A stretch of DNA of 64,000 bases from Vampirovibrionaceae bacterium NZW_1234 (GCA_041697335.1 JBGUGD010000002.1:128001-192000), one strand, 5' to 3'. Numbered from the stretch's first letter, positions 15,158 through 49,891 are shown. Translations and numbers: made by a program. The notes: generated from the letters alone by a model not told the origin.

Positions 15158-15190
15158 TGCATAAAAACCAGGAATCTAAATTTTTTGTTA
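15158..15190 (-). promoter_or_regulatory. conserved upstream motif, copy 1 (TAACAAAAAA-N13-TTTTTATGCA)
   Basis: 30/33 identical to 31651-31683; same orientation relative to the downstream gene. Confidence 0.7.
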
Positions 15191-15334
15191 ATGTTTTTAT
15201 TTTTTTACGAAAAAAATTTATATAGACGTCAGTTTTGTATGCTTTTTCTACGCTCTGGGCTTATTTTGAGACAATGAGGGTGTATTGTGAGCTTTTATAC
15301 TTGTCTCTGAAGGGGTGTGCTGGTATCCGAAGTT

Positions 15335-15490
15335 AGAGGAACGGAAAACTTTTCCGTTCCTCTTGAGGGATCTGCTGACTAGAACGCGGGTTGGCAAAAC
15401 AAGAATGGCAAATCCACCAGAGATCCCACTCGCAATAGGACTCGGTCGCTTGGGGGGCGATTGGGGTGTCAAAGGATGTTTTACTTTTGA
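15335..15490 (+). ncRNA. structured nadA leader, candidate NAD+-I-like riboswitch
   Basis: 13-bp perfect hairpin (15335-15363), then a GGGAUCU..CUG/CAGAGAUCCC stem enclosing an 8-nt junction and a GCGGGUU/AAUCCAC stem (15367-15427), then a hairpin and U-rich tract. Confidence 0.45.
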
Positions 15491-15556
15491 TTCCAGTTTC
15501 AGTACAGTATCAGTACTCAATTCGTTTTTTATGGCCTGCTACGAAAGGGATGATGT

Positions 15557-16549
15557 GTGATGATGGCTGCCGAAACAATGCTTCCCCCTGCATTTGGCTC
15601 GATTGAACAGAAACAGAGCCGACTGGAACGCCAACGTCAGCTGGAAACTGAAATTCAGCAACTCAAAAAAGAACGAAACGCCGTAATTCTGGCCCACTTG
15701 TATGAGCGCCTGGAAATTCAGCTGGTGGCCGATCACGTGGGCGACTCCCTGGGGTTAAGCCAGGAAGCTGCCAAGACGGATGCCGATATGATTATTTTTT
15801 GCGGCGTCCATTTTATGGCCGAAACCGCCAAGCTGCTGTCTCCTCAAAAGAAAGTGTTCCTGGGCAATAAAAACGCCGGCTGCCCGATGGCCGATATGAT
15901 TACCCGGGATGACCTGATCAAGTTCAAAGCCCAGCATCCCGGTGTCCCCGTGGTGGCCTATGTGAATACCACGGCGGAGGTCAAGGCTGAAAGCGACGTC
16001 TGCTGCACCAGTGCCAACGCCGTGAACGTGGTGCGAGCCTTGGGCTCTGATAAGATTTTATGTGTGCCCGATCAGCATCTGGCCAAGTACATCCAATCCC
16101 AGGTTCCCGAAGTCGAGGTGATCTGGTGGAACGGCTTCTGCCCCACCCATTTACGCATGCTTCCGGAAGATGTGATTGCCTTGAAGCAGGAATACCCGGA
16201 AGCCATGATTCTGGCCCATCCGGAGTGCGATGATCCCATTAAAGATCTGGCTGATTTTATCGGAAGCACTACCAAAATTCGGGAAACCGCCATGAAGAGC
16301 AACAAGCGGGTCTTTATTGTCTGTACCGAGGACGGGGTGCGTCAGCGCCTCAGTTATGACTGTCCAGACAAGCTGTTTTTAACGCCGACCCGGGCTTGTG
16401 CCGTTTGTCCCAACATGAAGCTGACCCGGCTTGAAAACATTCGCAATACCCTGCGGGATATGGATCCGGCCGATGAGATTATTATTCCGGACGACATTGC
16501 CGTCAGGGCTCGCAAAACTCTTGATATGATGATGGCCATCCACGGCTAA
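15557..16549 (+). CDS. nadA: quinolinate synthase A
   Basis: AVILAHLY, VGDSLGL, FCGVHFMAETAK, AGCPMAD, YVNTTAEVKA, CTSANA, AHPEC, CPNMK. Confidence 0.96.
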   Translation: MMMAAETMLPPAFGSIEQKQSRLERQRQLETEIQQLKKERNAVILAHLYERLEIQLVADHVGDSLGLSQEAAKTDADMIIFCGVHFMAETAKLLSPQKKVFLGNKNAGCPMADMITRDDLIKFKAQHPGVPVVAYVNTTAEVKAESDVCCTSANAVNVVRALGSDKILCVPDQHLAKYIQSQVPEVEVIWWNGFCPTHLRMLPEDVIALKQEYPEAMILAHPECDDPIKDLADFIGSTTKIRETAMKSNKRVFIVCTEDGVRQRLSYDCPDKLFLTPTRACAVCPNMKLTRLENIRNTLRDMDPADEIIIPDDIAVRARKTLDMMMAIHG

Positions 16550-16560
16550 AAGGACACGTT

Positions 16561-17838
16561 TTGATGTCTGACACCCCTCGTATTGCTGCCTCGGAGCCCC
16601 AGTCTCGTGTTCTTCTGGAGCCGAAAGTAGACAGTCGGTTTCAGGTGCGCCAGATCATTCCGGAGGCCTCCGGCTTGGAATTGCAACGGGTGCAGTTTGA
16701 TGAAAGCTACCGGCAGGTGGCTGAAAAGAAGTTTCACCATCTCGTTATCAAGGCATCCGCTTTATCGGCTCCCGGGGCCAATATCCTGAAGCAGACCTGC
16801 CTGACTCTGGGGGCTGAAGCCGGTGTGCATCGCGGTGCAATAAACTGTACGGTGGATCGGGAGGCCGTCCTGATTACGGCAACCCAGGCTCAGCTGGAAC
16901 GCCTGATTTTGAAGTTACGACCTCAGCCTTTTGGGTTGAAGCTTTTGGCGGAAAGTATCAGTCGCATGCTCCAGCGGCAAAGGCATCTTGGCCAGAAACA
17001 GCTGGAAGTGATGGCCATTTTGAATATGACCCCGGATTCCTTTTCCGATGGCGGACGTCTCGCTTCCATAGACGCCGTGATTCAAGCGGCACAGACCGCA
17101 TTGGATGCCGGGGCAAAGATTTTGGATGTCGGAGGCGAGTCGACTCGTCCCGGTGCCTCTTGTGTGCCGGTCGAGGAAGAGCTGGCACGGGTTATTCCCG
17201 TGGTTCAAGCCTTACGGCAAACCTTCCCCCAAGCGAAAATCAGCATCGATACCCGGAAGGCCATGGTGGCGCTGCGAGCCGTGGAGGCCGGGGCAAATTG
17301 GGTGAACGATGTTTCCGGGTGCACCTTTGATCCGGACATGATGCTTACCGTCATTGAAACAGGGGCTTCCGTCGTGATGATGCACAGCCAGGGGACACCG
17401 GAAACCATGCAGCAGAATCCCCACTATGACGATGTGGTCGGGGAGATTGCCCGCTTTTTTTACCAGCAATTGGATGCTTTTGTCTCACTTGGGGGCTCGC
17501 CCAACCAAGTCATCCTGGATCCGGGCTTTGGCTTCGGTAAAACCCTGGACCATAACCTGGAAGTGATGCGGCGATTGCCGGAGTTGGTCTCGATTGGCTT
17601 TCCCGTGCTGGTCGGGACATCCCGAAAATCATTTTTGACCCTGGGCCGTCCCGATGACATTCCCGTAACCGAGCGGGAAGCCCTGACGGCAGCGTCACTG
17701 GCTCTTGCCATTCAGTCTGGGGCGTCTATCCTGCGTGTCCATGATGTTTCGGTATTGATGCCTGTTATTCAATGGGTGCAGCAGGTCCAGACGTTTCCTC
17801 TGCCGTTAGTGGTGCCGGAGGAAGATACCCAGGACTAG
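16561..17838 (+). CDS. folP: dihydropteroate synthase with N-terminal extension
   Basis: MAILNMTPDSFSDGG, DVGGESTRPG, SIDT, VNDVSG, ILDPGFGFGK, GTSRKSF, LRVHDV. Confidence 0.95.
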   Translation: MMSDTPRIAASEPQSRVLLEPKVDSRFQVRQIIPEASGLELQRVQFDESYRQVAEKKFHHLVIKASALSAPGANILKQTCLTLGAEAGVHRGAINCTVDREAVLITATQAQLERLILKLRPQPFGLKLLAESISRMLQRQRHLGQKQLEVMAILNMTPDSFSDGGRLASIDAVIQAAQTALDAGAKILDVGGESTRPGASCVPVEEELARVIPVVQALRQTFPQAKISIDTRKAMVALRAVEAGANWVNDVSGCTFDPDMMLTVIETGASVVMMHSQGTPETMQQNPHYDDVVGEIARFFYQQLDAFVSLGGSPNQVILDPGFGFGKTLDHNLEVMRRLPELVSIGFPVLVGTSRKSFLTLGRPDDIPVTEREALTAASLALAIQSGASILRVHDVSVLMPVIQWVQQVQTFPLPLVVPEEDTQD

Positions 17839-18687
17839 TCCGGCAGTGGCCAGATTCATCAGGGCCGTGATGATAGGCTGAGGAGACCCGATACGCTTAC
17901 CAAACGGGTAGGTTAGTGCACAGAGCACCCCTGCAAGGGCTCCTCCCAGATGACCGAAGAGATTGAGTGGATAAGGGCTGCTAATATTCAGTACAACCAT
18001 GACCAGAATATAGCCGATGAGGCTTTGCAGAGTTTTTCCAAAGCTTTGCGACCGATAAACAAGGGCAGCTCTGGCTGATAGGATGATATAGGCCGTTTGG
18101 AAACCATACAGGATTCCAGAGGCGCCTACGGAGTGAGGCACTTGAAAATATAATGTCAGCCAGTCACTGCCCACCATTGCGGTGAGTCCCCACAGCACCA
18201 TAACCCGCCAGCCAATGAGGGACTCTAATAAGTAGCCGAAAATCAGCAACGCAAAGGTGTTGAAGAACAGGTGCTCCCAAGAAGCATGTGAAAAATTGGC
18301 GGTGACAAGACGCCAGTACTCCTGCCGGGTTATCACGCCCGTGAAGTCAAGGTTTGACCATTGGAGAAAGGTCTCTGTGGGCTGACCAAACTGGGGATAA
18401 CTACCGGCCAGATACACCAACACCAGGACAAGCGCAAAGATCATGGTGAACGGCGTATGGATTAACCCTCGAAAGAGGTTTTCATCTTCCCCTGAAAGAG
18501 CCTGATTCGGGGTATTTGATAGATCGGAAACAGGACCAGAAGCGTCGGTCAAGGGGATAACGGCATCCGGGTCCTTTAAGCAGCTGCGGCAAATCATGGT
18601 GCCGTCACTCATAATCAGGCCTAAATCGCCTTGAAGGGGTTTATGGCACCGGGCGCATTGAAATGAGGTTGGGGGGATACTGCTCAT
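17806..18687 (-). CDS. rhomboid intramembrane serine protease with N-terminal Cys4 zinc-ribbon-like segment
   Basis: YWRLVT, HASWEHLFFN, VGASG (Ser), GHLGG (His); CARC...CRSC at the N-terminus. Confidence 0.9.
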   Translation of the reverse strand: MSSIPPTSFQCARCHKPLQGDLGLIMSDGTMICRSCLKDPDAVIPLTDASGPVSDLSNTPNQALSGEDENLFRGLIHTPFTMIFALVLVLVYLAGSYPQFGQPTETFLQWSNLDFTGVITRQEYWRLVTANFSHASWEHLFFNTFALLIFGYLLESLIGWRVMVLWGLTAMVGSDWLTLYFQVPHSVGASGILYGFQTAYIILSARAALVYRSQSFGKTLQSLIGYILVMVVLNISSPYPLNLFGHLGGALAGVLCALTYPFGKRIGSPQPIITALMNLATAGLVLGIFLRHH

Positions 18688-18733
18688 CAGTCCGATTTCG
18701 ATCATTGTCTTGTCTATGGGACATTCTTAACGC

Positions 18734-18763
18734 AAAAAGCACCATTTTCAAACAATGGTGCTT
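18734..18763 (-). terminator. intrinsic terminator closing the rpsE-rpmJ operon
   Basis: AAGCACCATT/AATGGTGCTT stem with an A-run on + (U-run on the minus strand), downstream of rpmJ. Confidence 0.65.
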
Positions 18764-18862
18764 CGATAAATATCCGGCCATGGCGGTCAACACAAAAGAT
18801 CGGGAGTGAAGGACCATCCCCGTTGATGATGTGTCTATCGCTGTCGACAGTGTATCGTCAGA

Positions 18863-18976
18863 CTACCCTTGGCGTTGCTTGTGCTTGGGGTTCTCGCAAA
18901 TAACAGCCACACGGCCGCGACGACGAATGACTTTACATTTGTCGCAAATGCGCTTCACCGAGGTTCTGCATTTCAT
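18863..18976 (-). CDS. rpmJ: 50S ribosomal protein L36 (zinc-binding type)
   Basis: Not in the ORF track. Manual translation [37 protein letters not shown]. Confidence 0.97.
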
Positions 18977-18997
18977 GGGCTTCTTTCCTTCTTCGTT

Positions 18998-19216
18998 TTA
19001 TTTCATCCGGTAAGTGATTCGGCCCCGGGTGAGGTCGTAAGGTGTCAATTCCACTTTGACACGATCGCCGGGCAAAATCCGGATAAAGTTCTTACGTATC
19101 TTACCAGAAATATGAGCCAAAATCGAAACCCCATTTTCCAACTCGACGCGAAACATGGCATTGGGCAAGGATTCTTGAATGGTGCCTTCAATTTCAATGA
19201 CGTCTTTGCTGCTCAT
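18998..19216 (-). CDS. infA: translation initiation factor IF-1
   Basis: [30 protein letters not shown]. Confidence 0.98.
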
Positions 19217-19983
19217 GAAAATTTTGTCCGATCCGTAGTAATGAGGGGGCCATCTTCTGTGACTATAACTGTATGCTCAAAATGCGCCGATGGCAAGCCA
19301 TCTTGTGTGACAACGGTCCAATTGTCGTCAAGGGTGTAAACATCTTCGGTGCCCATATTAAACATGGGTTCAATGGCAAGAACAACCCCAGGTCGCAATT
19401 CCGGACCTTTGTTACCAGTGCGGTAGTTGTGAACAAAGGGTTCTTCATGGAGCTTTTTGCCAATGCCATGACCGCCATACATCCGTACCAGGCCATAGCC
19501 ATATTTCAGACAGACATCTTCCACAGCCCCGGAAACATCTTCCAGATAATTGCCGGCAACCATCTTATCAATGGCTGCATACAGGGACTCGTTGGTGGCG
19601 TCGAGCAGCTTTTGGGCGTCTTCGGAAATCTTGCCGACACCAATGGTAATGGCGGAATCGCCACACATGCCCTTGTACGTGGCACCACAGTCCAGGCTGA
19701 TCACATCGCCTTCTTTCAGAATCTTGTCGGCACGGGGAATCCCGTGTACCACCTCGTCATTCACCGAGGTGCATAAGGTCCCGGTGAATCCGTGGTAACC
19801 CTTAAATGTGGGCACGGCACCGGCCTTGCGGATCTGCTGTTCGGCAATCTGGTCCAGGTCCAATGTGGACATCCCCGGCTCAATGACCTTAATCAGGTGG
19901 AGCAGGGTTTGAGCAACGATTTGGCCGGCCTCTTGCATCAAGGCGAGTTCATGGCGACTTTTACGTTCGATGGGCTTGTTCAT
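19213..19983 (-). CDS. map: type I methionine aminopeptidase
   Basis: [35 protein letters not shown]. Confidence 0.97.
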
Positions 19984-20672
19984 ACCACCATTGTATCTGA
20001 GGTTTTGAAGAATTTATCGACGTGTTGACGGATATCTTCAAATACGACATCGATAGCTTGGTCAGCATTAATGCGCTGAAGCAGGCTTTTCTTGTCGTAA
20101 TAGTCCACCAAGGGCGACGTTTCTTCCTGATACGCTTTGAGTCGGTTTTCGATGACCTCGGGACGATCGTCCTTGCGAGTAACCAGCTCACTTTGGCACG
20201 CGTCGCAGGTGTTTTCCTGCTTCGGCGGCTTAAGCTTAAGGTTGTACTTGGCATCGCACTTCGGACAGGTCACACGGTAGGCCAGGCGATCCATTAAAAT
20301 CTCATAGGGTGTTTCCAGATACAATACGGAATCCAAGGTCAAACGCAGTTCCATCAGGACTGCATCCAAGCCGTCCACCTGGCTCAGGTTACGGGGGAAA
20401 CCGTCAAATAAATACCCGGCTTTATTTTCAGGAATGCGAACCATGGCAGCCTTAATTACTTTCATAACCAGTTCAAAAGGAACCAATTCGCCTTTATCCA
20501 CGTAAGCCTTGGCTTCTTTGCCCAAGTCAGACTCAGAGGCAATTTCCTGACGTAAGCTTTGACCGGTATCAATGTGAAAGAGTTTGTAATGCTCTGCCAT
20601 TCGCTGAGCTTGGGTGCCTTTACCGACACCGGGCATCCCCAGAAGAATAAGGACTCGCTTTTGCTGTGTCAT
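19980..20672 (-). CDS. adk: adenylate kinase (zinc-lid type)
   Basis: GMPGVGKGTQA, LFDGFPR, CPKC...CDAC lid, RKDD. Confidence 0.97.
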   Translation of the reverse strand: MTQQKRVLILLGMPGVGKGTQAQRMAEHYKLFHIDTGQSLRQEIASESDLGKEAKAYVDKGELVPFELVMKVIKAAMVRIPENKAGYLFDGFPRNLSQVDGLDAVLMELRLTLDSVLYLETPYEILMDRLAYRVTCPKCDAKYNLKLKPPKQENTCDACQSELVTRKDDRPEVIENRLKAYQEETSPLVDYYDKKSLLQRINADQAIDVVFEDIRQHVDKFFKTSDTMVV

Positions 20673-22021: not shown

Positions 22022-22040
22022 TTGTCTCTACCCTTACCGG

Positions 22041-22559
22041 TTATGCGTCACACTGTTGACCCAAAAGTTTTACCTGGCCACCTGCGGCTTCAATCTTTTG
22101 ACGGGCCGAAGGGGTTACGTGATGCGCTTCAACCACGATTTTTGCTTTGATCTCGCCGTTGCCCAAAATGCGGACACCGTCAAAGCGATTGGGGTTGAAA
22201 CGACCGACCAGTTGAAGTTTTTCATAGGTCAACTCGGACTCACCCGGAATTAGGCAATCTTCCAAATCACCGACGTTGAGCTCAACCCATTGCTTGCGGT
22301 TGATGAGCTCAAAGCCATCGATGTGAGGCAAACGACGGTACAGGGGCATTTGACCGCCTTCAAAACCTCTTTTCTTGCTCAAGCCAGAACGCTGGCCTTC
22401 ACCGTTGTGACCCCGATTACTGGTTTTACCAGCACCGGAGGCCCGGCCGCGACCAACCCGAAGTTTATTCTTGGTAGCGCCTTTGGCGGGCTTCAAATCC
22501 CCAAGGGTCAGTCTTTTTTCAGGGGCTTGAGCGGTAGCTTCTTTTTTTGCACGAGCCAT
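22041..22559 (-). CDS. rplO: 50S ribosomal protein L15
   Basis: RVGRGRASGAGKTSNRG, GFEGGQMPLYRRLP, KIEAAGG. Confidence 0.97.
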   Translation of the reverse strand: MARAKKEATAQAPEKRLTLGDLKPAKGATKNKLRVGRGRASGAGKTSNRGHNGEGQRSGLSKKRGFEGGQMPLYRRLPHIDGFELINRKQWVELNVGDLEDCLIPGESELTYEKLQLVGRFNPNRFDGVRILGNGEIKAKIVVEAHHVTPSARQKIEAAGGQVKLLGQQCDA

Positions 22560-22561
22560 GG

Positions 22562-22750: not shown

Positions 22751-22763
22751 GGTTGGTAGACTC

Positions 22764-30051: not shown

Positions 30052-31581
30052 TTATACGGCAGCTTGCTCCCGATCTCGAGGATTTGGACGGTCCGCCTGA
30101 GCCACAAAGGCTCCGGAATGACAAGCGGTCATAAACAACTTTGCAGAGTGGAAGTCGGCCATATAGGTATTAAAGTAAGCTTTGAGCTGATCTTCGGTCA
30201 GATTGACGGGGCGTTGTCCGCCTCGACCATCCGGGACGTTTCCGATATGGACGTACCCTCGGAGGGCGCCTTGACGATGAGCCTCTTGCTGCGGTAATCC
30301 GGCTTCGACCCCATCGGTACTCCCATGCCCTAACACGGCGACTAAGGCTTCTGCACCGGGATTTCGAGATGAAAACTCCCGCATTCTTTGGAAAGCCTGC
30401 TGCATGGCTTCTGGCGTGCAATTTTCAACGACTTCAATATTGTCATCGGTAACCCCGTAGCGATCCTTGGTCATTTGTACTAGGCGTTGCCGATGATCTT
30501 GTAAAACGGCACCGTCACTATGGGGATCTCTGCTGGAGGTGGGGCCAATGAAGACGAGCACTCGCCGAGGGCGTCTCTCTCGCTGGTCCCACCCTTGGGT
30601 TCCCTGGCTCGACTGGACCGGGTGTTCGCAGGGCTGATGCCCCATTAAGGGTCTGGCAATAGTGCCTTGGCTTGCGGCACGATGTGCTTCATCGATGGTA
30701 TTGCAACGTCCGAGGGCATCCAGGAACATGGTCATACGATCCTGATTGCGTTCGGCTTGAACGTAGGTGACCTGGTCCTGGCCTGAGCTGGCTAAGACTT
30801 GGGTATTCCGAGGCCAACGATTTGTTAATCTGGAATCTTGTGTGTCCAGCTGGGTACGTTGTCCAACAAGCCCATATCGGCGCTGCAAAGAACCCATTGT
30901 GCTAATATTTGCCTGCTCTGATTGACGTGCGTCTTGAAGTGCTTCTGCTGCTTTGTTTCTGAATAGACCAATTCCCCAACGGAACAGGCCAGCCAACGGT
31001 TTTAGTAAGAGTGGTGGATTTTTCCACCAGTTTAAACGATTGTCCCACTTATTAAAGCGCTGTTCACAACTGCGCCGATGTTCACGCAATTGGGGGTATT
31101 CACTTCGAACACGGATTATTTCTTGATTCAGCCGTGCCGATTCCTGAACGAAGACATTTTCTGAGGTGTTGGCTTGCCGACCTTCCAGTTCTGCAAGATA
31201 GGCTTGATCAAAGTCACGATTGGCGAGTTGTGATTGTTGCATCGCTAAATCTGATGTCTGGCGCTGCTCAATGATTCTTTGAGCCAATGACGGGTTGTGG
31301 CTGAGTCGGGCTCGTATTTGCTCGGGTGAATAATAACGTGAAAAATCCAGTATGCTTTCTCCCGGAGCCAGACGCATTTGACCAGCTTCAATAGAGCGGA
31401 TGATGTCCTCATTCAGTCGGTTATAGCGGCTGGACCAATTTTGTTGGTTTTGAGCCAGATAACGTTCAATGGCATCCACGCGGGGGCCTACATCGCTTAC
31501 GGATCTGAGAGGATTCCCAAACGATGGATAGGGTTGCGATACTCGGCTGTGAAAGCTTGGATTAACCGTTCCCACACTCAT
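30052..31581 (-). CDS. helical N-terminal region fused to a circularly permuted caspase-like (clan CD) peptidase domain
   Basis: ALVAVLGHG (His) and LFMTACHSG (Cys) near the C-terminus; p10-like QVLASSGQDQVTY..FLDAL..TIDEAH..HQP lies upstream of RRVLVFIG. Confidence 0.7.
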   Translation of the reverse strand: MSVGTVNPSFHSRVSQPYPSFGNPLRSVSDVGPRVDAIERYLAQNQQNWSSRYNRLNEDIIRSIEAGQMRLAPGESILDFSRYYSPEQIRARLSHNPSLAQRIIEQRQTSDLAMQQSQLANRDFDQAYLAELEGRQANTSENVFVQESARLNQEIIRVRSEYPQLREHRRSCEQRFNKWDNRLNWWKNPPLLLKPLAGLFRWGIGLFRNKAAEALQDARQSEQANISTMGSLQRRYGLVGQRTQLDTQDSRLTNRWPRNTQVLASSGQDQVTYVQAERNQDRMTMFLDALGRCNTIDEAHRAASQGTIARPLMGHQPCEHPVQSSQGTQGWDQRERRPRRVLVFIGPTSSRDPHSDGAVLQDHRQRLVQMTKDRYGVTDDNIEVVENCTPEAMQQAFQRMREFSSRNPGAEALVAVLGHGSTDGVEAGLPQQEAHRQGALRGYVHIGNVPDGRGGQRPVNLTEDQLKAYFNTYMADFHSAKLFMTACHSGAFVAQADRPNPRDREQAAV

Positions 31582-31650
31582 GTACTGTACATCCCTCTTG
31601 TGTTTCTCTCTCGTGATCCATGCAATGCATGGAGCCTAGTCCCTCACATG

Positions 31651-31683
31651 TGCTTAAAAACCATGAATCTGAATTTTTTGTTA
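31651..31683 (-). promoter_or_regulatory. conserved upstream motif, copy 2 (TAACAAAAAA-N13-TTTTTAAGCA)
   Basis: 30/33 identical to 15158-15190; about 70 nt upstream of the ATG at 31581. Confidence 0.7.
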
Positions 31684-33495: not shown

Positions 33496-33582
33496 TATCT
33501 CCTGCGTTATTCCGGAAGCAGCAAGTTATGCGCAACTTTTATCGCTTCTCCGGTTTTTATGCAGGTATAGCGTAGAGATAGA

Positions 33583-35745: not shown

Positions 35746-35987
35746 TTTTTCTTGAATATTGTGACCTGTGTCATGCTTTATTTGAGGAGCAAAACTTAAT
35801 TGACGAACGCCCTTTTATTACTTGGTAATCGATAAGCCTATTTTAACAAAAGCAATAATAGGGTGTTACAAAGTAATGAAAAGGGAATGTATCACGGGTT
35901 TTATGCCCATACAGGAATATAATGGGACGTTGACTTCGTACATGGGTGTGAGGGAATAGTCGTCAGAGATTGGGAAAGGATATTTGT

Positions 35988-36935
35988 ATGGTAGCGATTG
36001 ATGGTAAAACCGGCCCGAAAGGGGCGGGTGTTGGCAACTACGGTTATAATGCCGGAGATGCATTGGTGAAGGTGCTGGACAAGTCACTCGAGGGTCCTAT
36101 CTCTAATGAGGACAAGGAGGTTATGAAGAAACTGACTGTGCGGTACAGTCCTGAAACCAAACCGACAGTGCCGGATTATGCAAACGTGTTCGGCATGACC
36201 CAGCGCTTAATGGAGCGCTTGGATAAGGATGGCGATGGGAATATTCAGCGAGGGGAAATTACCAATTTGTTGAATCGGAAGCTGTCTGGTGTAGAAGCTT
36301 TTGGCTTCGGTATTGTCGATGTTAACAATGACAAGCAAATCAGCTTTGAAGAGGCCGCAGCTACATTAATTCACCTGGATCAGAATAATAAGAATTTTGA
36401 TGGACAAATTGATGCAAAGGAAGCCACTGGGGGGATTGGCATATTTAGCGGAGCTAAGATCAAAAAGATTATGGAGTCACCAGCATTTAAGACGCAGTTG
36501 GCTGAATATAAAGAGGCAAAGAGCAAACCCTCGGTTAAAGCGGTCACTGTTAGCGATGAGAAGCCCGTCGCCAAACCTGCAGATAAACCCGCCGACAAGG
36601 CAACGGAAAAAAATGTCGATAAACCAGTGGCTAAGCCCAAAACACCAGCGACAATTACACCCATGGATCCTAAATTCATCCAATTTATGAAAGATTCGGC
36701 AGGCAAATCCAAGATTACCCTGAAAACCTTTACGGGATATGTGGATGAATGGAATAGAACTCATGCCGAGCGAGAAGGCAATGGCTGTATTACGGCTACC
36801 GGTAAAGATTTGCAGAATTTCTTTAAACAGCTTCGGAAGGGGCATAATAACTGGGGGATCGATCTTAGCATTACATCTCGAGATCTGGATTCGTTGTTGA
36901 ATAAAGCGACCCCGGAACAGCGCAAATATCGATAA
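35988..36935 (+). CDS. EF-hand calcium-binding protein, Lys-rich
   Basis: Loops DKDGDGNIQRGE, DVNNDKQISFEE and DQNNKNFDGQIDAKE; KP-rich linker. Confidence 0.8.
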   Translation: MVAIDGKTGPKGAGVGNYGYNAGDALVKVLDKSLEGPISNEDKEVMKKLTVRYSPETKPTVPDYANVFGMTQRLMERLDKDGDGNIQRGEITNLLNRKLSGVEAFGFGIVDVNNDKQISFEEAAATLIHLDQNNKNFDGQIDAKEATGGIGIFSGAKIKKIMESPAFKTQLAEYKEAKSKPSVKAVTVSDEKPVAKPADKPADKATEKNVDKPVAKPKTPATITPMDPKFIQFMKDSAGKSKITLKTFTGYVDEWNRTHAEREGNGCITATGKDLQNFFKQLRKGHNNWGIDLSITSRDLDSLLNKATPEQRKYR

Positions 36936-37076: not shown

Positions 37077-37110
37077 TAACAAAAAACTAATGATTGATCA
37101 TTTTTATACA
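37077..37110 (+). promoter_or_regulatory. conserved upstream motif, copy 3 (TAACAAAAAA-N14-TTTTTATACA)
   Basis: Both boxes and the internal GATT are shared with copies 1 and 2; 70 nt upstream of ATG 37180. Confidence 0.6.
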
Positions 37111-37179
37111 CATACGGTCTATTTGAAAACAATGTGGACATAGGTAATCAGTAAGGTCACACAAGGGAGTGCTGGGAAA

Positions 37180-38277
37180 ATGGTCAATCGCATGCTTTTA
37201 AATCCAAATGGTAATTTCGTCGGTGGTGCCGGCTTCGGCATGAACGCCAATTTACGCTTGAACTTGGCATTAAATGCAAGTCTTCGTTTTAATGGCAATT
37301 TTGGTACAGCCAGTTCGTTACCCATTGGTTTGGGTACCGGTTGGGGTAGCGGCACCGGTTTCGGGGTCAACCCGGGCTGGGGTAGCGGTATCGGGTTTAA
37401 TCCCAATCTGGGTATTGGCTTGGGTGGCAATGCTAGCTTCGGTATGAATCCGGGCTGGGGGCTGAACCCTGGGTTTGGAATGAATCCCGGCTGGGGCGTT
37501 AATCCCGGCTTTGGAATGAATCCCGGTTTGGCTGGTGGTGGTGCCGGCTTTGGCTGGGGTGGCGGTGCTGGAGGTTTTGGCAGCGTAGGTTTTAATCCTG
37601 GATTTGGAACCTCTGGCTTTGGTACCGGTGGTTTTGGTGTCACCATTAGCGGCAATATCAATTGGAATATGGCTGGAGGTATTGGCGGTCGTGTCAATAC
37701 GGGTGGCGGCATAGGCGGCACTGTGACCGGTGGTGGTACAGTGACGGGAGGCGGTACTGTCACAGGAACAATCCCAGCACCTCGCCCTCGTCGTCGTGAC
37801 CCCTTGGCCTTGGATATGGGCAGTGGTATCGGGGTTCAACGCACCAATAATGGCTTTGATTTAACCGGTCGTGGCAATCGTGCGGCCGAGTGGTTCCGTC
37901 CCGCAGGTGATCAGACTCCGGCCATTGTTGTTCGCCCTGATGCAGATGGTCAGGTTCGGGATGGTCGAAACCTGTTTGGAGATGCCAATGGGGATCGCAA
38001 CGGTTTTAATGCGCTGGCTCGCTATGATGATAACCGGGATGGCCGTGTGGACGCCCAAGAGGCCCTGCGTCACGGAATTGCTCTGTGGCAGGATCGCAAT
38101 GGCAATGGCCGTGTAGACGCCGGTGAAATGAGCAGCTTCGGCCAGCTTGGCGTAGCCTCTATTGATACGAATTACCGTGAGACCAATGATGAAGTTTTAC
38201 GGCAGCAAGGGCGTTTTACCCGGACTAACGGAACAACCGGCCTTGCGGCTGATGCTTGGTTGGCAAGCCGGTCTTAA
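37180..38277 (+). CDS. Gly-rich low-complexity protein with C-terminal FrpC-type self-processing (Asp-Pro) module
   Basis: D207-P208 in RRRDPLALD, followed by FD, DG..DGRNLFGD, GFNALARYDDNRDGRVD, LWQDRNGNG, LGVASID, QQGRFT..GTT..D, all in SPM order. Confidence 0.8.
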   Translation: MVNRMLLNPNGNFVGGAGFGMNANLRLNLALNASLRFNGNFGTASSLPIGLGTGWGSGTGFGVNPGWGSGIGFNPNLGIGLGGNASFGMNPGWGLNPGFGMNPGWGVNPGFGMNPGLAGGGAGFGWGGGAGGFGSVGFNPGFGTSGFGTGGFGVTISGNINWNMAGGIGGRVNTGGGIGGTVTGGGTVTGGGTVTGTIPAPRPRRRDPLALDMGSGIGVQRTNNGFDLTGRGNRAAEWFRPAGDQTPAIVVRPDADGQVRDGRNLFGDANGDRNGFNALARYDDNRDGRVDAQEALRHGIALWQDRNGNGRVDAGEMSSFGQLGVASIDTNYRETNDEVLRQQGRFTRTNGTTGLAADAWLASRS

Positions 38278-41380: not shown

Positions 41381-41401
41381 AATTCGTGTTCCTTTCCTCG
41401 C

Positions 41402-43929: not shown

Positions 43930-44127
43930 TACTTATATTTCCCAATTCATTGACGTATTAACTTAACTTGTTGAAAAGGGGAGACAAGGACAAGGATCTG
44001 TATGGGAATATCGTTATAGAGTCTGCCTACCCAGGTTAACTGTTGCAGGTACTGACGAATCGGTTTTGGTATATCGGGATCGAGCCACTTTTTGCCATAC
44101 CCTATAGCGAACATTGTTGCTTGGAAA

Positions 44128-44517
44128 TTAGGACAAGCGCTTTGGGGCGCCTTCACCTGTTTCGAAACGGTCTCGAAGGATTTGAACACCCTTGCCTAAG
44201 GCTGTTGCTAGCCAAAAAATAGCAGTGGAGGGTGTTGAATAACTGCCGACAACCGGCTCAGCCAGGGGGCGCTGATGAGGGTCGATGATGTCGATTGTTA
44301 CAGATTGGGGGGGCGACTGGTCTCGGTTGTGATGCTGAACGTTCAGATGAATACCTTCGGCATCGAGTTGGTTGACAATGCTTGCCAGGGAATGACGTGC
44401 ATTTTGAAAATCCTGAATCAGTTGGGGCCGATGATGAGGATTATAGTCATCTTCATGGGCAATGGTCACTTTGCCAAAACGCGGCAAAGGCATGAGCGAG
44501 GGGGTAATGCGGACCAT
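44128..44517 (-). CDS. hypothetical protein
   Basis: 129 aa; AAGGAG RBS; N-terminal PLPRFG. Confidence 0.7.
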   Translation of the reverse strand: MVRITPSLMPLPRFGKVTIAHEDDYNPHHRPQLIQDFQNARHSLASIVNQLDAEGIHLNVQHHNRDQSPPQSVTIDIIDPHQRPLAEPVVGSYSTPSTAIFWLATALGKGVQILRDRFETGEGAPKRLS

Positions 44518-44558
44518 AATAAGGGCTTCTCCTTGAGTTATGTCAACACAATAGCGAG

Positions 44559-45212
44559 CTAATAGGGTTTCTCGGGATTGACATCCGGACGGTATTCAAG
44601 CGGGAGATTGGTGTCAGGGTGAATTCGTGGGCTGAGGCCCCCGATAGTTAGAGCAAAGCGTCGAAGCGCACTTGACATGCCCCCCAAAATACTCGGATCG
44701 TGGGTCTGAGCACTCATCGTTAAGACTTTACCTTGGTGTGTTTCCACCACCTCAGGATTGACCTTCAAGAGTTGCTGACGTCGTAACACTATGGCTGTGG
44801 GGAACAGACGAGGGAAATTGGCAAATTCGGTTTTAGCCTTTTGAATTTCGTTATCACTGGCACGTGAATAAATGCCGAGCTGGAATTCTGCCGTCGGGGT
44901 TTCAGACGGTTCCACCGGAAGCCATCGATGAATGAATGCTTTTAACGGGGCCAGGAGCTTCATATCTTCTTCATCGGTGGTGTGATCGATATACGTGCTC
45001 AGTACACGTCCTGTTGGAGTCTGTTGAATCCTGTACTGGTGTCGAATACTGTACTTTCTTGGTAAAACACTGGTAAAGGCATCCGAGGTCGGCAAGTCAC
45101 GCCAAGCGTCCAGCAGCTGCTTTTCATCCCGCCGTCGAAGGCCTTGAGGAAGTTGGATGCGAAACTCGCCACTACCAAACCTAGTCTTAGAACAAGAATC
45201 ATTTGTTTTCAT
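44559..45212 (-). CDS. hypothetical protein
   Basis: 217-aa ORF co-oriented with its neighbours; N-terminal KTRFG. Confidence 0.65.
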   Translation of the reverse strand: MKTNDSCSKTRFGSGEFRIQLPQGLRRRDEKQLLDAWRDLPTSDAFTSVLPRKYSIRHQYRIQQTPTGRVLSTYIDHTTDEEDMKLLAPLKAFIHRWLPVEPSETPTAEFQLGIYSRASDNEIQKAKTEFANFPRLFPTAIVLRRQQLLKVNPEVVETHQGKVLTMSAQTHDPSILGGMSSALRRFALTIGGLSPRIHPDTNLPLEYRPDVNPEKPY

Positions 45213-45438
45213 ATTTTGAATTTATCAGAAACGATATGCTGCGTCCCTTCCAAGCCGTGTTTTGAAAGCAGATATTTACGTTTATTCATAAACCCGCATC
45301 ATTTTTCCAGGGTTCGGTTTTATGTATGTCCCTAAGGGACGTGTGCCTTGGGTTGGGAATGTGTGCTAAGTAGACTCTGAGCTTAAGTCTCAGGGCATTT
45401 TGTATGCGTTGATGTAGTAATAATCAATAGGAGTTGAG

Positions 45439-46215
45439 ATGATGCGTTCTATACAATTATCGCCAGCCCTGGCTGGTCAGATGGCTTATTGCAATCGCAT
45501 GCCATTCACACCCAAAGAGCTGGGTTTTCGAAATATACCCGACTCCAAAGTTCTACTCGTTTCAAAAGAGGTGGGTCAGAAGTCCGACCCTGCTGTCCGC
45601 TTTGGATTAGGCCGACGCAGCTTTGTGGGTTTAATGAGTACTTTGGTGGGAGGTATGGTTTTTATCCTCTCCTCACTCATTGTTCCCTCAATCTATCGAC
45701 CTGTGGGGAATACTCCTGAACGTATTGTCTCAACCTTGCCGAAAGCAACGGGACAGGCGATTGATAACATTAAGGTGGCTAATCCCACCGGGAATCCAAC
45801 TTATAGTCAGGTTCAGGAGCAACTAAGGACAGCACACCAACAATTACAGAATGACTGGAAGCCTGGACAGGGTAATGCGATTCCCAATTTAGAAAAACTT
45901 TCACCGGCTGAGCAACGGGCCACCAATGAATCTCTAAACCGGATGCTTCGTTTGGTTCGGTGTCGCCATGCGGGTGACATTGATCTGGCTCGTAAAGAAT
46001 ATATTCGCTGGACCCAGGATGTCCTGGCAACTCGGGTGGATGCTGAAACCCTGCGAGCTGTTCAGGACTATGGCACTGAGGCACTTGGACCTGTGTCCAA
46101 CGAATTTGATGCCCAAGCCAGAGTATGGTTCATCATTGCGGCTGGTATTGGTGTTGCTGTTGCAGGGACGGCGGCCTACAAGCTCAATCGTTGGACAAAA
46201 GATGATGATATCTAG
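45439..46215 (+). CDS. hypothetical two-TM membrane protein
   Basis: AGGAG RBS; PAVRFG precedes the first TM; second TM at the C-terminus. Confidence 0.75.
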   Translation: MMRSIQLSPALAGQMAYCNRMPFTPKELGFRNIPDSKVLLVSKEVGQKSDPAVRFGLGRRSFVGLMSTLVGGMVFILSSLIVPSIYRPVGNTPERIVSTLPKATGQAIDNIKVANPTGNPTYSQVQEQLRTAHQQLQNDWKPGQGNAIPNLEKLSPAEQRATNESLNRMLRLVRCRHAGDIDLARKEYIRWTQDVLATRVDAETLRAVQDYGTEALGPVSNEFDAQARVWFIIAAGIGVAVAGTAAYKLNRWTKDDDI

Positions 46216-46230
46216 ACTGCGATAAATATG

Positions 46231-46265
46231 AAAAGCACCTGGGTTAAGGTAACCCAGGTGCTTTT
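46231..46265. terminator. bidirectional intrinsic terminator
   Basis: AAAAGCACCTGGGTTA-agg-TAACCCAGGTGCTTTT. Confidence 0.9.
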
Positions 46266-46283
46266 TGCTTTAAAAAGCTGCGA

Positions 46284-47819
46284 CTATTGCACAGGATCGA
46301 TTTGAGCCCGTTGCAGTTTATCACTGTAGTCGATGTAAACGGCCTTCCACTCGGTAAAGATGTCGAGGCATGCCTCGGCAGCTTCGCGGTGGCCATTGCC
46401 GGTATTTTTGGTACCGCCAAAGGGCAAGTGGACTTCGGCTCCAATGGTCGGTGCATTGACGTAGGTTAAGCCGGAATCCAGGTCGCGAACAGCTTGGAAG
46501 GCTTTGTTAACGTCCTTGGTGTAGATGGCAGTAGACAAGCCGAACTCAATGCCGTTGGCCACGTTGATGGCTTCTTGCAAGTCGTTCACTTCGATGACGG
46601 CAGTGACCGGCCCGAAGATCTCTTCCTGTGCAATACGCATGGTAGGCTTCACGTTGTCAAAGATGGTGGGTTGGAAGAACCAGCCAGGGCCAGCCTCAGG
46701 TGCGCGTTTGCCACCAAAGACCAGAGTAGCACCATCTTCCTGCTGACCGATTTGAACGTATTTTTCGATCTTCTTCAAGGAGGACTCGTTAATGACCGGG
46801 CCCACGTCCACTCCGGCATCCAGACCGTAGCCGAGTTTTAGCGTTTCAGCCCGCTTCACGAGGCGTTCAACCAGCTCTTTATGAATCCCTTTTTGAACAA
46901 TAACCCGGCTGGCTGCGGTGCAACGCTGACCGGCTGTCCCAAAAGCACCCCAAATGATGCCATCGACAGCCAACTCTAGGTTGGCGTCATCCAGAACGAT
47001 GATGGCGTTTTTACCGCCCATTTCCAGGGAAACTCGCTTGAAGGTGGGGGCGCACTTTTCGTTGACGTGGCGACCCACTTCGCAGGAGCCGGTGAAAGAT
47101 ACTAGGCGAACATCAGGGTGTTCCAAGATGGCATCACCTACGGCACCACCGCCACCGGTGACCATGTTCAGAACACCCGGGGGCAGGCCGGCTTCTTCCA
47201 GAATTTCTACAAAGCGTGTGGCTACAAGGGGTGTATCGCTGGCTGGCTTAAAGACCACGGTGTTACCACAGACCAGAGCCGGAGCAATTTTCCAGCTGGG
47301 AATAGCCATCGGGAAATTCCAGGGGGTGATACAACCAACCACGCCCAAAGGCACGCGCACTGACATGGCCCATTTGTTTTTCAATTCTGAGGGAGTCGTT
47401 TGTCCGAACAGGCGACGGCCTTCGCCAGCAGCGTAAAAGACCATGTCAATTACTTCCTGGATATCGCCGCGGGCTTCAGCAATAACTTTACCCATTTCAC
47501 GGGTCAGCTCACGAGACAGCTCTTCTTTACGCTCGATGAAAAGCTGGCCTGCTTTGAAAAGGATTTCTGCCCGACGGGGTGCCGGGGTTAAGCGCCATTC
47601 TTCATAAGCCTTTTTTGCGGCTGCAACGGCTTCATCCACGTCTTCCTTACCAGAAGCCGGGAAAATACCTACCACATCCGACGGATTAGCCGGGTTGGTG
47701 CTTTGGAAAGTTTTACCGGATTTGGCCGGTTGCCATTTGCCGTTAATAAAATTCTTAAATTCTGGCGGGTTGCCGGTTTTACCCGTGGTTTCACCAGCAA
47801 CAGTCTGCGTTCCAACCAT
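46284..47819 (-). CDS. aldehyde dehydrogenase family protein
   Basis: ITPWNFP, FKPAS, SFTGS, LEMGGKN, AGQRC, EEIFGP, PFGG. Confidence 0.96.
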   Translation of the reverse strand: MVGTQTVAGETTGKTGNPPEFKNFINGKWQPAKSGKTFQSTNPANPSDVVGIFPASGKEDVDEAVAAAKKAYEEWRLTPAPRRAEILFKAGQLFIERKEELSRELTREMGKVIAEARGDIQEVIDMVFYAAGEGRRLFGQTTPSELKNKWAMSVRVPLGVVGCITPWNFPMAIPSWKIAPALVCGNTVVFKPASDTPLVATRFVEILEEAGLPPGVLNMVTGGGGAVGDAILEHPDVRLVSFTGSCEVGRHVNEKCAPTFKRVSLEMGGKNAIIVLDDANLELAVDGIIWGAFGTAGQRCTAASRVIVQKGIHKELVERLVKRAETLKLGYGLDAGVDVGPVINESSLKKIEKYVQIGQQEDGATLVFGGKRAPEAGPGWFFQPTIFDNVKPTMRIAQEEIFGPVTAVIEVNDLQEAINVANGIEFGLSTAIYTKDVNKAFQAVRDLDSGLTYVNAPTIGAEVHLPFGGTKNTGNGHREAAEACLDIFTEWKAVYIDYSDKLQRAQIDPVQ

Positions 47820-48094
47820 GGTTACCATTCTCCTTAAAAAATACACGTGTACTCGAAAAATTCGACAGGCACATTGTACTGTAAAGGCACCCCGGTATCA
47901 AAATGATTCTCCTATCTCGGTTGTTGTTTAACTATATAATTACTTTTGTAATCAAATATGGCTTTAAGTTTTGTGTTTGATGGTGTGTCGGGGACTCTTG
48001 AGCGATTGGAGAAAAGGCTCGCCGAAATGCTTTAACACTCATTCTTTAATTGTTAACATGGGCTGTTCTGTTACTGTGAGATAGTTATTCTGGA

Positions 48095-48910
48095 TTAAGG
48101 GGTGGTATGGATGTCTTCAATTTGAATGGGCTTTTTGGGGTCTCTGAGAGTACTGGTGTCGAAAAACTGCTCGTTCATTGCGCCCGAAAAGCAGTTTTCA
48201 AAGATGCACACCGTATGATCGAATGCCTGGGAAGCATCCACAATCGGCTTAAAGACATCCTGTTCATGGACCAAGTGACTTTTCCGCCATCCCATCCGCT
48301 CCTCCTTGTTCCGATTTTGGAAGAGGAGAACGCTTTCCATATTGGGATCGGTATTTGGCATTTGAGGCGTATTTGCTTCATTGCTACTGGTGCACACATT
48401 TTGAGGCTTTTTGATACTCGAACGCAGGACTGTTCCATGCATGGTGGAATCTACAATTAAATGATCTCCCTCTTCTGTTTTGCCTCGTGTTTTGGCATCT
48501 GATAGATGCTTTTCAAATTCCTCGAAGGTATCGGCGGTTTTCACCTCGTATCCTAGCCCTTCATAGCGTTCGGTTTTTTCTTCGAGGCCTTTTTCAAACA
48601 TTGCCTTCTCGCTCGCATCATTGGGTTGACCGGCGACCAGGATGGCCGTGCCTTTGTTTTTACGATTTGGATTTGCAACCGTGTCAGGCAGAGGAGCCCC
48701 GTAGCTCTGCGGTGTTTGTGGGCTCTCAATCAACGACTCCGGAAACCCCTTTTGTTGAATGTCTTCATGGGCCTGTTTTAAGCTATGCCCATTCCGAATA
48801 CGTTCTGTTAGTGCACCGGAATAAACACCGCCGTGTTCATAATCCCCATGGGAGATTTGGTTAGGCTGGCTGGCAGTGAGAATCGAAATGCGGGGTGTGA
48901 CTTTATCCAT
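48095..48910 (-). CDS. circularly permuted caspase-like (clan CD) peptidase, tandem copy B
   Basis: N-terminal ISILTAS..GGVYSGAL..QTPQSYG, then TAILVAG..GYEV..GDHLIVDSTMHG..VCIFENCFSG. GAGGAG RBS before MDKVTP. Confidence 0.75.
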   Translation of the reverse strand: MDKVTPRISILTASQPNQISHGDYEHGGVYSGALTERIRNGHSLKQAHEDIQQKGFPESLIESPQTPQSYGAPLPDTVANPNRKNKGTAILVAGQPNDASEKAMFEKGLEEKTERYEGLGYEVKTADTFEEFEKHLSDAKTRGKTEEGDHLIVDSTMHGTVLRSSIKKPQNVCTSSNEANTPQMPNTDPNMESVLLFQNRNKEERMGWRKSHLVHEQDVFKPIVDASQAFDHTVCIFENCFSGAMNEQFFDTSTLRDPKKPIQIEDIHTTP

Positions 48911-49015
48911 AGCAATGCTCCTCTTGTATATTCCGTGGAAACGAACTAATAGAAACATCACTTTGATAATACTAATAGAAGAAAGCCGTTTGGTGGCATA
49001 TTTAGAAGAGTAATC

Positions 49016-49834
49016 TTACGGGCTCCTGTAAATATCGTCGTATTTGATGGGAGGTGTCGGCTGATTGGTTTCGGATTGCAGAAACTGATCGTTGAGAGCG
49101 CCCGAATAGCAACTGTCAAAAATACAAACGGTATGATCGAAAGATTCAGCTGCATCGACGATGGGTTTAAAGACATCCCGCTCATGTACAAGATTGCTAT
49201 CCTTTAATCCAAACTGTCTTGTCTCGTCTGGGTTTCTGAAAAGCAGGACCCCTTCCTGATTGGGATTTGGTGAGGGTGGTCTGGTAGCGGACGGTGATGT
49301 ACCGCTGATACTGGAGTTCAGCACGCTGCCATGCATGGAGGCATCTACAATCAGGTGATCGTTCTCTTCGGTGGCACCCCGGGCTTTTGCATCTGACAGG
49401 TGTTTCTTGAATTCGTCAAACGTTTCTGCTGTTTTGACTTGATATCCCAGACTTTCGTAAAGAGTGGTTTTTGTTTTGACATCGTTTAGAAATTTATCTT
49501 TATCCGCTGCGTGTTTGGTTTGGCCGGTGACTACAATGGCAGTGCCTTTGTTTTTGCTACTTGGGTTTGCGACTTCGTTAGGAACGGGTAAGCCATAGCT
49601 TTGGGGGCGCTGGTTGAGCGTTTCGTCGGGTTTGATTCCCTGCAAGCCACTTTGTACCAACTCCTGGTGGGCTTGTTTCAGGGGGTGTCCGTTTTGAATG
49701 CGTTCTGCCAGGGCTTGTGAATAAAGCCCGCCGTTGCCGTCACTGCGGTGATTTGCGACGCGATGTGGTTCACTGGCAGTCAGCACGGAAATTTTGGGAA
49801 ACGTTGGTTCCACAGCCAAATCCCTTTTAGTCAA
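49016..49834 (-). CDS. circularly permuted caspase-like (clan CD) peptidase, tandem copy A; alternative GTG start at 49813
   Basis: ISVLTAS..GGLYSQAL..QRPQSYG, then TAIVVTG..GYQV..DHLIVDASMHG..VCIFDSCYSG. Confidence 0.75.
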   Translation of the reverse strand: MTKRDLAVEPTFPKISVLTASEPHRVANHRSDGNGGLYSQALAERIQNGHPLKQAHQELVQSGLQGIKPDETLNQRPQSYGLPVPNEVANPSSKNKGTAIVVTGQTKHAADKDKFLNDVKTKTTLYESLGYQVKTAETFDEFKKHLSDAKARGATEENDHLIVDASMHGSVLNSSISGTSPSATRPPSPNPNQEGVLLFRNPDETRQFGLKDSNLVHERDVFKPIVDAAESFDHTVCIFDSCYSGALNDQFLQSETNQPTPPIKYDDIYRSP

Positions 49835-49857
49835 CCTGTCTACGCTAACGGTATATA

Positions 49858-49891
49858 GACATGAAAACGAAATATTGATGTTTTTTTATTA
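49858..49891 (-). promoter_or_regulatory. degenerate upstream motif, copy 4 (TAATAAAAAA-N14-TTTTCATGTC)
   Basis: Two-box match upstream of the tandem peptidase pair; the AT-rich context weakens it. Confidence 0.4.

Follow-up and report, generated by a model that had tools for sequence, protein, structure and literature searches.

The window analysed here is a 64,000-nucleotide (nt) stretch of DNA (G000:C34:128001-192000) from a 3.70-Mb genome of an uncultured bacterium (G000; 50% GC, 95% complete) whose SecY is 78–80% identical to that of Vampirovibrionales genomes and 58–60% to that of Vampirovibrio chlorellavorus, identities by which it is a member of the non-photosynthetic class Vampirovibrionia. 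The original prediction for this window held that a motif of about 33 bp recurs upstream of otherwise unrelated genes for Phe-Gly- and Gly-rich proteins, a self-processing protein and permuted proteases, and marks a regulon controlled through a promoter or an operator; it named strand and distance bias, enrichment over an AT-matched background, the gene classes hit and conservation in related genomes as checks. Here we report that the motif is real rather than a product of chance and far more extensive than the window suggested, that it is almost certainly a promoter, and that it is probably read by a pair of FliA-derived sigma factors, one of which is encoded beside a gene of a second flagellum-type export system.

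Four sites in the window gave rise to the proposal. The 33-mers at 15158–15190 and 31651–31683 (minus strand) were identical at 30 of 33 positions, the sites at 37077–37110 and 49858–49891 were present as written, and all four were co-oriented with the next gene. The first, TAACA-N17-GTTTTTATG (15154–15190, minus strand; 24.9 bits in a genome-trained model), has a predicted start at 15154 (minus), placed by the pyrimidine-purine (YR) peak described below, 49 nt ahead of the ATG at 15105 of a Phe-Gly-rich low-complexity protein of 254 amino acids (aa) that has no Pfam family (14341–15105, minus). The second, TAACA-N17-GTTTTTAAG (31647–31683, minus; 24.5 bits), has a predicted start at 31647 (minus), 66 nt ahead of the ATG at 31581 of a 509-aa protein without a Pfam match (30052–31581, minus). 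The His-Gly ... Cys-His-Ser-Gly pair of this protein, judged by eye, suggests a permuted caspase-like protease, a putative role; its closest paralogue, C13:41200, likewise has a site. The third, TAACA-N18-ATTTTTATA (37077–37114, plus; 25.2 bits), has a predicted start at 37114 (plus), 66 nt ahead of the ATG at 37180 of a Gly-rich protein (37180–38277, plus) that ends in an FrpC-type Ca-dependent self-processing module (SPM) with the Asp-Pro site present; its match to the FrpC module of PDB 6sjw (E 1.6e-14) bears out the SPM label.

The fourth site, TAATA-N18-GTTTTCATG (49854–49891, minus), had been called weaker and scored 14.7 bits, in a score bin (14–17 bits) that holds 35 intergenic and 0 genic matches. 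It precedes a tandem protease pair (48095–49813, minus; 53% mutual identity). The N-terminus of each member aligns with the C-terminal half of the caspase domain (PF00656; E-values of 0.0017 and 0.00023, at or below the cut-off), a position that would be expected of circular permutation. The label of permuted proteases draws on these sub-threshold caspase-half matches and on inspection of the sequences; BLAST revealed no similarity between the 30-kb protease and the 48–49-kb pair. A fifth match, reported at 33552 before a CHASE2 cyclase (33553–33561, plus), did not hold up: it consists of the core only, lacks the upstream box, scores 9.9 bits in a bin with 68 intergenic and 11 genic matches, is indistinguishable from background and was excluded from the members.

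For the genome-wide search, a two-box weight matrix was seeded with 20 pattern matches, iterated and applied at a threshold of 17 bits, together with 3281 genes from a self-trained gene caller and eight genome-wide dinucleotide shuffles made per segment, which also stand in for the chance expectation within the window. The search revealed 199 sites in G000 with the consensus cTA(G/T/A)CA-N17/18-GTTTTTATA-N4-YR, in which the spacer between the boxes is 17 nt at 162 sites, 18 nt at 34 and of other lengths at three. None of the 199 sites lies in a called gene, and the enrichment over background was clear, with 201 matches above 17 bits in intergenic DNA versus 0–2 in each shuffle. Because matrix iteration can create its own signal, we added a matrix-free count of exact GTTTTTAT copies: 138 of 297 intergenic but 6 of 137 genic copies have CA at 19 nt ahead of the G, and the corresponding counts for TA at +13 are 134 of 297 and 2 of 137. 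The strand and distance bias was equally evident. Between tandem genes, 66 sites point toward genes and 7 away; a first tally over all sites (165 in the same orientation, 33 opposite) understates the bias, since the gene caller overlooks low-complexity genes. A frame of at least 50 codons starts within 260 nt of 170 of the 199 sites, at a median of 71 nt, whereas in the opposite direction only 105 sites have such a frame, mostly at long distances. The upstream box comes in two classes, GCAATT with a spacer of 17 (46 sites) and TAdCAmAAA with a spacer of 17 or 18 (153 sites). The A-run stressed in the original prediction does occur in this box, as merely one of its variants, and is missing from about a quarter of sites. 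The regulon is about forty-fold the size implied by the window.

Of the 89 gene-proximal TGTTTTTAT sites, 78 have a YR step at offset +13 relative to the G. Housekeeping TGn-TA..AT sites have YR at the same +13 offset in 53 of 136 cases, compared with 20–36 at neighbouring offsets, and because the step of the motif falls at the housekeeping start offset, the motif reads as a promoter, which we hold to be nearly certain. In the numbering that follows from this reading, the G would be -14, the core GTTTTTATA (-14 to -6) the -10 element, TAdCA, with its CA at -33/-32, the -35 element, and the purine of the YR step the start. Between the two kinds of element originally considered, the strict 17/18 spacing, the direction and the start-site step favour an alternative-sigma promoter over an operator. 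Canonical FliA sites of G000 carry the T of their -35 box at -19, the position of the C of the motif, and YR at +14 in 13 of 28.

Sites without a gene also showed signs of transcription units: an intrinsic terminator follows at a distance of up to 160 nt in 5 of 29, compared with 12 of 300 intergenic windows taken at random (p 0.011). Several gene-less units open with a CU-rich tract, one of which is complementary to the GAGTTAGGAG leader tag, and this tag is more frequent among targets than elsewhere (GTTAGGA: 18 of 147, against 14 of 2404). CU-rich gene-free units, mostly terminator-ended, were seen at C7:68347 (-), C26:143567 (+), C34:80666 (+), C14:161091 (+) and C37:112811/114582 (-), the two C37 units being identical from just past the predicted start through the U-tract; these units are likely anti-ribosome-binding-site small RNAs.

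The gene classes behind the motif are mostly orphans, plus proteases, matrix-like and FrpC-type proteins. The 147 first genes fall into 127 sequence families, so gene duplication does not account for the motif. A Pfam match (E 1e-5) was obtained for 11 of 78 targets versus 36 of 66 neighbouring control genes held to a stricter 1e-12, after 4 of 70 controls had been removed as shadow frames over targets. The 11 are five C39-like proteases, two EF-hand proteins, a collagen, a DUF4214 protein, a microviridin-like precursor and a ribbon-helix-helix (RHH) regulator. Counted by family, both SPM proteins of the genome, five C39-like proteases and two of four relatives of the 30-kb protease have sites. 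Signal-peptide-like starts are rare, in 1 of 147 first genes versus 196 of 1740 genes elsewhere, and the first 30 residues are rich in Ser, Asn, Gln and Gly, with a fraction of 0.35 in targets versus 0.23 elsewhere and 0.25 in 30 Pfam-negative controls (p 2e-5); eight flagellar-type export substrates range from 0.20 to 0.50. This profile fits type III substrates, but would equally suit matrix proteins or type I cargo. A link to the Arg-Phe-Gly leader class was rejected, since the class is not enriched among targets (12 of 147) relative to the proteome (258 of 3281), and a looser form of the leader pattern gave a slight excess (41 of 147 versus 327 of 1740).

As to the sigma factor that reads the motif, the Pfam region-2 model found eight sigma-70 proteins in G000. 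Sigma-54 was considered because the upstream box resembles TGGCAC, but PF04552 had no match at E <= 1 in this 95% complete genome and the motif model lacks a -12 TTGC box. A SigF-like sigma was not found in five motif-bearing genomes (G035, G041, G059, G064 and G069), nor an extracytoplasmic function (ECF; SigG-like) sigma in four (G004, G035, G041 and G069). Canonical FliA is present in all motif-bearing genomes examined, keeps the usual recognition segments and has its own TAAAG-N15-GCCGATA promoters, a consensus that the motif does not match; in G000 one of these lies ahead of fliS and others ahead of pilin-like genes, and the flagellin upstream regions are without the motif. Group 5 sigmas (TcdR/BotR/TetR/UviA) use the boxes TTTACA and GTTATA and carry SRQ in region 4.2 according to the excerpted text of PMC4031146. 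They resemble the present case, as far as that excerpt goes, in being small divergent sigma-70 proteins with a -35 box ending in ACA and a GTTATA similar to GTTTTTATA, but here neither box matches exactly. The two sigma factors described next also lack the SRQ signature, give their best matches to sigma-28 and have no group 5 family among the 25 NCBIfam matches listed for them.

The first of these, sigma A (G000:C29:179872-180600; 242 aa), is the ninth sigma of G000 and was met among the neighbours of the second flhB gene (flhB-2), which it directly follows. In Pfam it is matched by region-4 models alone, and database labels give merely 'sigma-70 family' or a wrong name; a sigma-28 offshoot that the standard region-2 model misses implies that sigma inventories of this class undercount. 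Sigma B (G000:C16:18950-19630) is 42% identical to A. In a set of 80 genomes, A (54–72% identity) occurred in 37 of 37 and B (37–50%) in 36 of 37 genomes of the motif-bearing families, a single divergent copy of the A/B family in families f6, f8, f9 and f11, and none in f5 and f10; the A/B family was not found in 80 other cyanobacterial genomes. Sigma A stands behind flhB-2 in 27 of 30 loci, and the adjacency extends to 3 of 3 f9 loci. Throughout the four motif-bearing families, A and B share the predicted -10 helix, TA-x-[KR]-WA-[IV]-RNE-[LV]-R-x-R-[YH]-KW, which is altered in the other families, whereas region 4.2 differs between A and B (SSRVTR/PSRISR). A shared -10 helix with different regions 4.2 would explain two -35 classes over one -10 box.

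The best PDB match of the A/B profile is FliA (1rp3; E 5e-20 over 206 of 210 positions), and the top Foldseek matches are FliA as well. Yet sigma A/B score 74.8 bits on TIGR02479, against a cut-off of 189.6 and a score of 270.9 for the FliA of G000. An alignment-based model of sigma A (mean pLDDT, the predicted local distance difference test, of 71; a single-sequence fold reached 56 and was set aside) contains a region-2 bundle and a region-4 helix-turn-helix, separated by residues 107–166 that are acidic and disordered (pLDDT <50) in place of an ordered domain 3. Where FliA has IDQLRxQDWVPR, A and B have RNELRxRYKWY; the -10-reading residues that belong to the DWVPR segment are D81, R84 and R91 in E. 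coli FliA. G000 encodes one FlgM, without a paralogue by BLAST. Gene B is itself preceded by a site of the GCAAT class in G000 (16.2 bits), G110 (20.2), G035 (12.9), G001 (9.7, weak) and, by pattern, G059, from which we suggest that A would switch on B in a cascade. Taken together, the motif is probably read by this FliA-derived pair.

The strict pattern was present in all genomes of the two other families of the order (f2, 17 of 17; f3, 15 of 15; 32 of 32 together), in 2 of 2 of f4 and in 29 of 32 of f7, so that conservation in relatives, too, was as the original prediction required. Elsewhere it was rare (f5 0 of 30, f6 7 of 30, f8 1 of 9, f9 1 of 12, f10 1 of 2, f11 0 of 1). Strict matches numbered 67 versus 9 for reversed controls in f7 and 8 versus 5 in f6; a looser pattern gave 9 and 8 matches in two V. 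chlorellavorus genomes, versus 1 reversed control each, and a weak 9 versus 6 in MEL.A1. Family f7 is probably the gut Gastranaerophilales, an assignment made partly from names on 60%-identical proteins. The site ahead of the RHH gene is kept in G000, G110, G001 (two copies), G030 and G070, and the RHH upstream regions of nine f9 genomes contained neither the motif nor a clear variant. A de novo 8-mer search for variants in 400 kb each of G020 (f9) and G022 (f6) yielded nothing but was uninformative, as the motif escaped it even in G000 and G030, which served as controls. In G020:C6:1-400000, an abundant palindromic intergenic repeat (GTCATTGCGAG / CTCGCAATGAC) dominates upstream k-mer counts.

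Beside its flagellar set, G000 has second copies of flhA, fliI, fliF, fliE, flgC, flgF/G, flhB and fliPQR (23–51% identity), with fliH-, fliO- and fliM/N-like genes. The second set therefore has its own export gate, ATPase and inner ring (FlhA/B, FliPQR, FliI, FliF; 27–51% identical to the flagellar copies), as does a non-flagellar type III secretion system. Its FlhA-2 scores 678 on FlhA and 586 on SctV profiles, each below the cut-off. FlhA-2 is found at 63–76% identity in 36 of 37 genomes of motif-bearing families and at 42–49% in f6, f8, f9 and f11, and is absent from f5 and f10. In f7, 15 of 15 genomes have FlhA-2 without a full-length flagellar FlhA, and the sigma pair and the motif are kept. 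No site lies directly upstream of the apparatus operons. Two further observations touch this system. At G000:C30:50562-52826, apart from both flagellar clusters, a FliJ-like gene, a 270-aa gene and a short FlgE/F/G-like gene may belong to it. In f7 genomes (for example G030:C3:317613-318692), and also in G001 and G008, a frame of about 500 aa encodes only the cytoplasmic part of an FlhA-like protein, 25–33% identical to FlhA-2 and present in addition to it.

We propose that RNA polymerase with sigma A or B would recognize GTTTTTATA as the -10 element and TAdCA as the -35 element and start at the purine, and that A would activate gene B through its GCAAT-class site, giving a two-step cascade. 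The apparatus would be made first and the substrates later, as its genes have no site, much as sigma-28 fires substrates once the flagellum is built. That the promoter is read by A/B and turns on, at a late stage, proteins that leave through a second flagellum-type system not used for motility is an evenly balanced proposition, and the chances are likewise even that most of the targets leave by that route.

Several results weigh against this proposal. A second L/P ring, FlgK, FlgL or FlgM was not found in G000, and neither of its two secretins lies on a contig bearing the clusters of the second set. The targets include cytoplasmic products (the RHH regulator and the small RNAs), their acidic depletion relative to Pfam-negative controls is not significant (p 0.2), and type I export is the typical route of FrpC-type and C39-type proteins. 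The start register agrees exactly with RpoD extended -10 promoters (TG at -15/-14, T at -12 and -7) and only within one base with FliA sites, so the geometry does not single out the A/B pair. No site was found ahead of gene B in G017, G041, G004 and G087, and in G030 and G123 the match there is limited to the core. The two-class split of the upstream box (likelihood gain 137, versus 26–39 with permuted columns) may partly reflect A-run versus T-run composition, which column permutation does not preserve. Finally, f6, f8, f9 and f11 have a sigma family member and an FlhA-2-like gene but no strict motif, nor was a variant motif found there, albeit with a k-mer search that failed on its positive controls as well; and because the motif-bearing families are kin, the co-occurrence of motif and sigma pair comes close to one event.

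The same promoter and sigma pair might instead serve a developmental or surface programme (attachment pad, sheath or resting coat), in which the Gly/Gln/Asn-rich proteins stay inside or are released through lysis or type I export, and the proximity to flhB-2 reflects no more than inherited gene order. Collagen-like, EF-hand, SPM, DUF4214 and microviridin-like proteins and stand-alone C39 proteases among the targets would suit such a programme, as would a composition bias that spans whole proteins rather than N-termini and a second system for which no filament, needle or outer-membrane exit was identified. We nevertheless consider it unlikely: the sigma family and FlhA-2 have the same distribution over families, with no genome that has the former and lacks the latter, the flhB-2 adjacency recurs in most loci and reaches into f9, f7 retains FlhA-2, pair and motif where the full-length flagellar FlhA is gone, and the C39 targets matched no long C39-ABC exporter.

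Still less probable is that the motif is an extended -10 variant (TGn-TTTTAT) read by sigma X, a group-2-like sigma (G000:C5:218135-219175), or by RpoD with an activator at TAdCA. Besides the shared register, the motif has 6 of 8 specified bases in common with the TGnTATAAT promoters present in G000 (T 0.73, G 0.93 and T 0.99 in the model at TG -15/-14 and T -7, with a purine start), and its upstream box resembles TTGACA at T-x-x-C-A. Sigma X was also our first candidate: it carries a fixed WWIQQ change, is kept through most of the order and in f4/f7, and its clade (support 100/98) comprises only motif-bearing genomes, which likewise tells against the A/B pair. Against this stands the base at -11, which is T almost without exception (model frequency 1.00), where RpoD and sigma X, by the region 2.3 pocket residues that they keep, would require A; -9 is likewise T for A, and the core is near-invariant. 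The obligatory upstream box lies two bases further out, ending 19–20 nt before the putative -12, so that the -35 to -10 spacer would come to 19–20 rather than 17 +/- 1 nt, whereas housekeeping sites of G000 have no -35 signal. In addition, G053 and G035 have 42 and 32 motif matches versus 6 and 8 controls, yet sigma X was not found in either, although these are two incomplete genomes of one genus (g5). An operator of a DNA-binding regulator, such as the RHH protein that itself has a conserved site, or an AT-rich by-product, is very improbable. The A-run and T-run of the original examples are loosely dyad-symmetric, but the 66 versus 7 strand bias, the 17/18 spacing, the fixed YR step, the quarter of sites without an A-run and the 0–2 matches in shuffles speak against either, the strand bias and the T-run class count against a palindromic operator in particular, and RHH was not found in motif-bearing G041 and G004.

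The regulon that we favour, one read by sigma A/B, has parallels in known systems. HrpL of plant-pathogenic Pseudomonas and Erwinia, an ECF sigma that reads the hrp box GGAACC-N15/16-CCAC of an injectisome regulon, is likewise a dedicated sigma encoded with a type III system, whose box tags scattered substrate genes and allows them to be catalogued; here, by contrast, the sigma is a FliA-derived pair, the apparatus genes lack the box and flagellar rod genes are present. With FliA class-3 systems it shares the -35 to -10 distance and a sigma gene beside a flagellar-type export gene, whereas A/B, unlike an ordinary FliA, are without an ordered domain 3 in the model. The regulon would thus act like a FliA or HrpL substrate regulon, yet by cut-off, domain 3 and the DWVPR segment A and B fall outside FliA. 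In Bdellovibrio bacteriovorus, the excerpt of PMC3627812 describes an expanded attack-phase regulon of an ordinary FliA with a canonical TTAAG-N16-CCGATA box, which is similar in its sigma-28-related factor, bipartite promoter, dispersed surface, protease and unknown genes and predatory lineage. It differs, on the same excerpt, in that G000 has a separate canonical FliA with its own boxes, A/B below the FliA cut-off and the box TAdCA-N17-GTTTTTATA.

Non-flagellated Gastranaerophilales retain flhB, fliI, flgG and other genes without a working flagellum according to the excerpted texts of PMC4040986 and bioRxiv 10.64898/2026.04.24.720558, of which the latter postulates secretion by the residual subset; the passages available from both treat the subset as leftovers of flagellar loss and name no promoter, sigma or substrates. 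A flagellated genome with both gene sets side by side indicates instead that the subset forms a distinct paralogous system, older and served by a sigma of its own. The 'incomplete flagellum' that gut Gastranaerophilales retain would accordingly be a conserved export system in addition to the flagellar one. For the pad and spike of Vampirovibrio, a type IV system was proposed in PMC4451040, whose excerpted text contains no mention of 'sigma' or 'promoter'. A search of open-access full text found no published account of this promoter or sigma pair.

A bolder version, which we advance tentatively and regard as somewhat improbable, is that the Vampirovibrionales and their gut sister families share an independently evolved flagellum-derived delivery machine with a two-step sigma cascade, in which the promoter serves as a barcode for the substrates in any genome of the group. 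If so, the second system, and not the proposed plasmid type IV system, would build the attachment pad or spike of Vampirovibrio and deliver attack proteins, and common gut Melainabacteria would act on a host or prey cell too. In any case, the motif would be a sequence tag by which about 150 orphan genes, unreadable by other means, can be recognized as parts of a single programme. It would offer a first hold on gene regulation in the non-photosynthetic sister group of cyanobacteria, be an unusual promoter, with T at the position where sigma-70 requires A, and make the attack of Vampirovibrio on algae testable with purified proteins and the cultured predator.

Several minor observations concern the targets and sigma factors of G000. 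A 110-aa family with the pattern MGxAASQARxLxLTARKSDLE (C7:123788, C8:98161, C10:10475 and C10:11173) has some copies with the motif, including the top-scoring site (C7:123672), and one with a canonical FliA-type box; this hairpin family was not found in five motif-negative genomes and is a candidate for a structural substrate that the second export system handles. At G000:C30:129196-130406 and C28:12076 lie repeat precursors whose core is microviridin-like (PF12559), and weak motif sites precede two of them. An RpoD-like sigma of 719 aa (G000:C2:10943-13102) has a long extension and begins with an 'xFG'-type leader; it could be exported to a host plastid, and long RpoD-like proteins are also present in G004 and G053 (607–631-aa frame). 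Canonical FliA boxes number 14–29 in G000 (among them C28:27839, C7:68451, C2:61588 and C29:195764) and stand ahead of fliS and several prepilin-like genes; its three flagellin genes have no clean FliA box.

Further analysis of the window revealed four sites beyond those originally proposed, two strong and two weak. A strong site of the GCAAT class (51760–51796, plus; 24.8 bits; predicted start 51796) precedes a 360-aa Phe-Gly-rich orphan protein (51829–52911, plus), and another (53461–53497, minus; 28.8 bits) is followed by short frames only, with no convincing gene. The weak candidates lie ahead of an EF-hand protein at 35988–36935 (35875–35911, plus; 14.0 bits) and, with a spacer of 16, ahead of an orphan gene at 9201 (9152–9187, plus; 13.1 bits). 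Core-like matches without an upstream box were seen on the opposite strand at 15193 (+) and 49880 (+), with 16.3 and 13.0 bits; they overlap the sites at 15168 and 49868 and could be divergent overlapping promoters or chance. The window also contains a canonical FliA-type box at 59818 (-).

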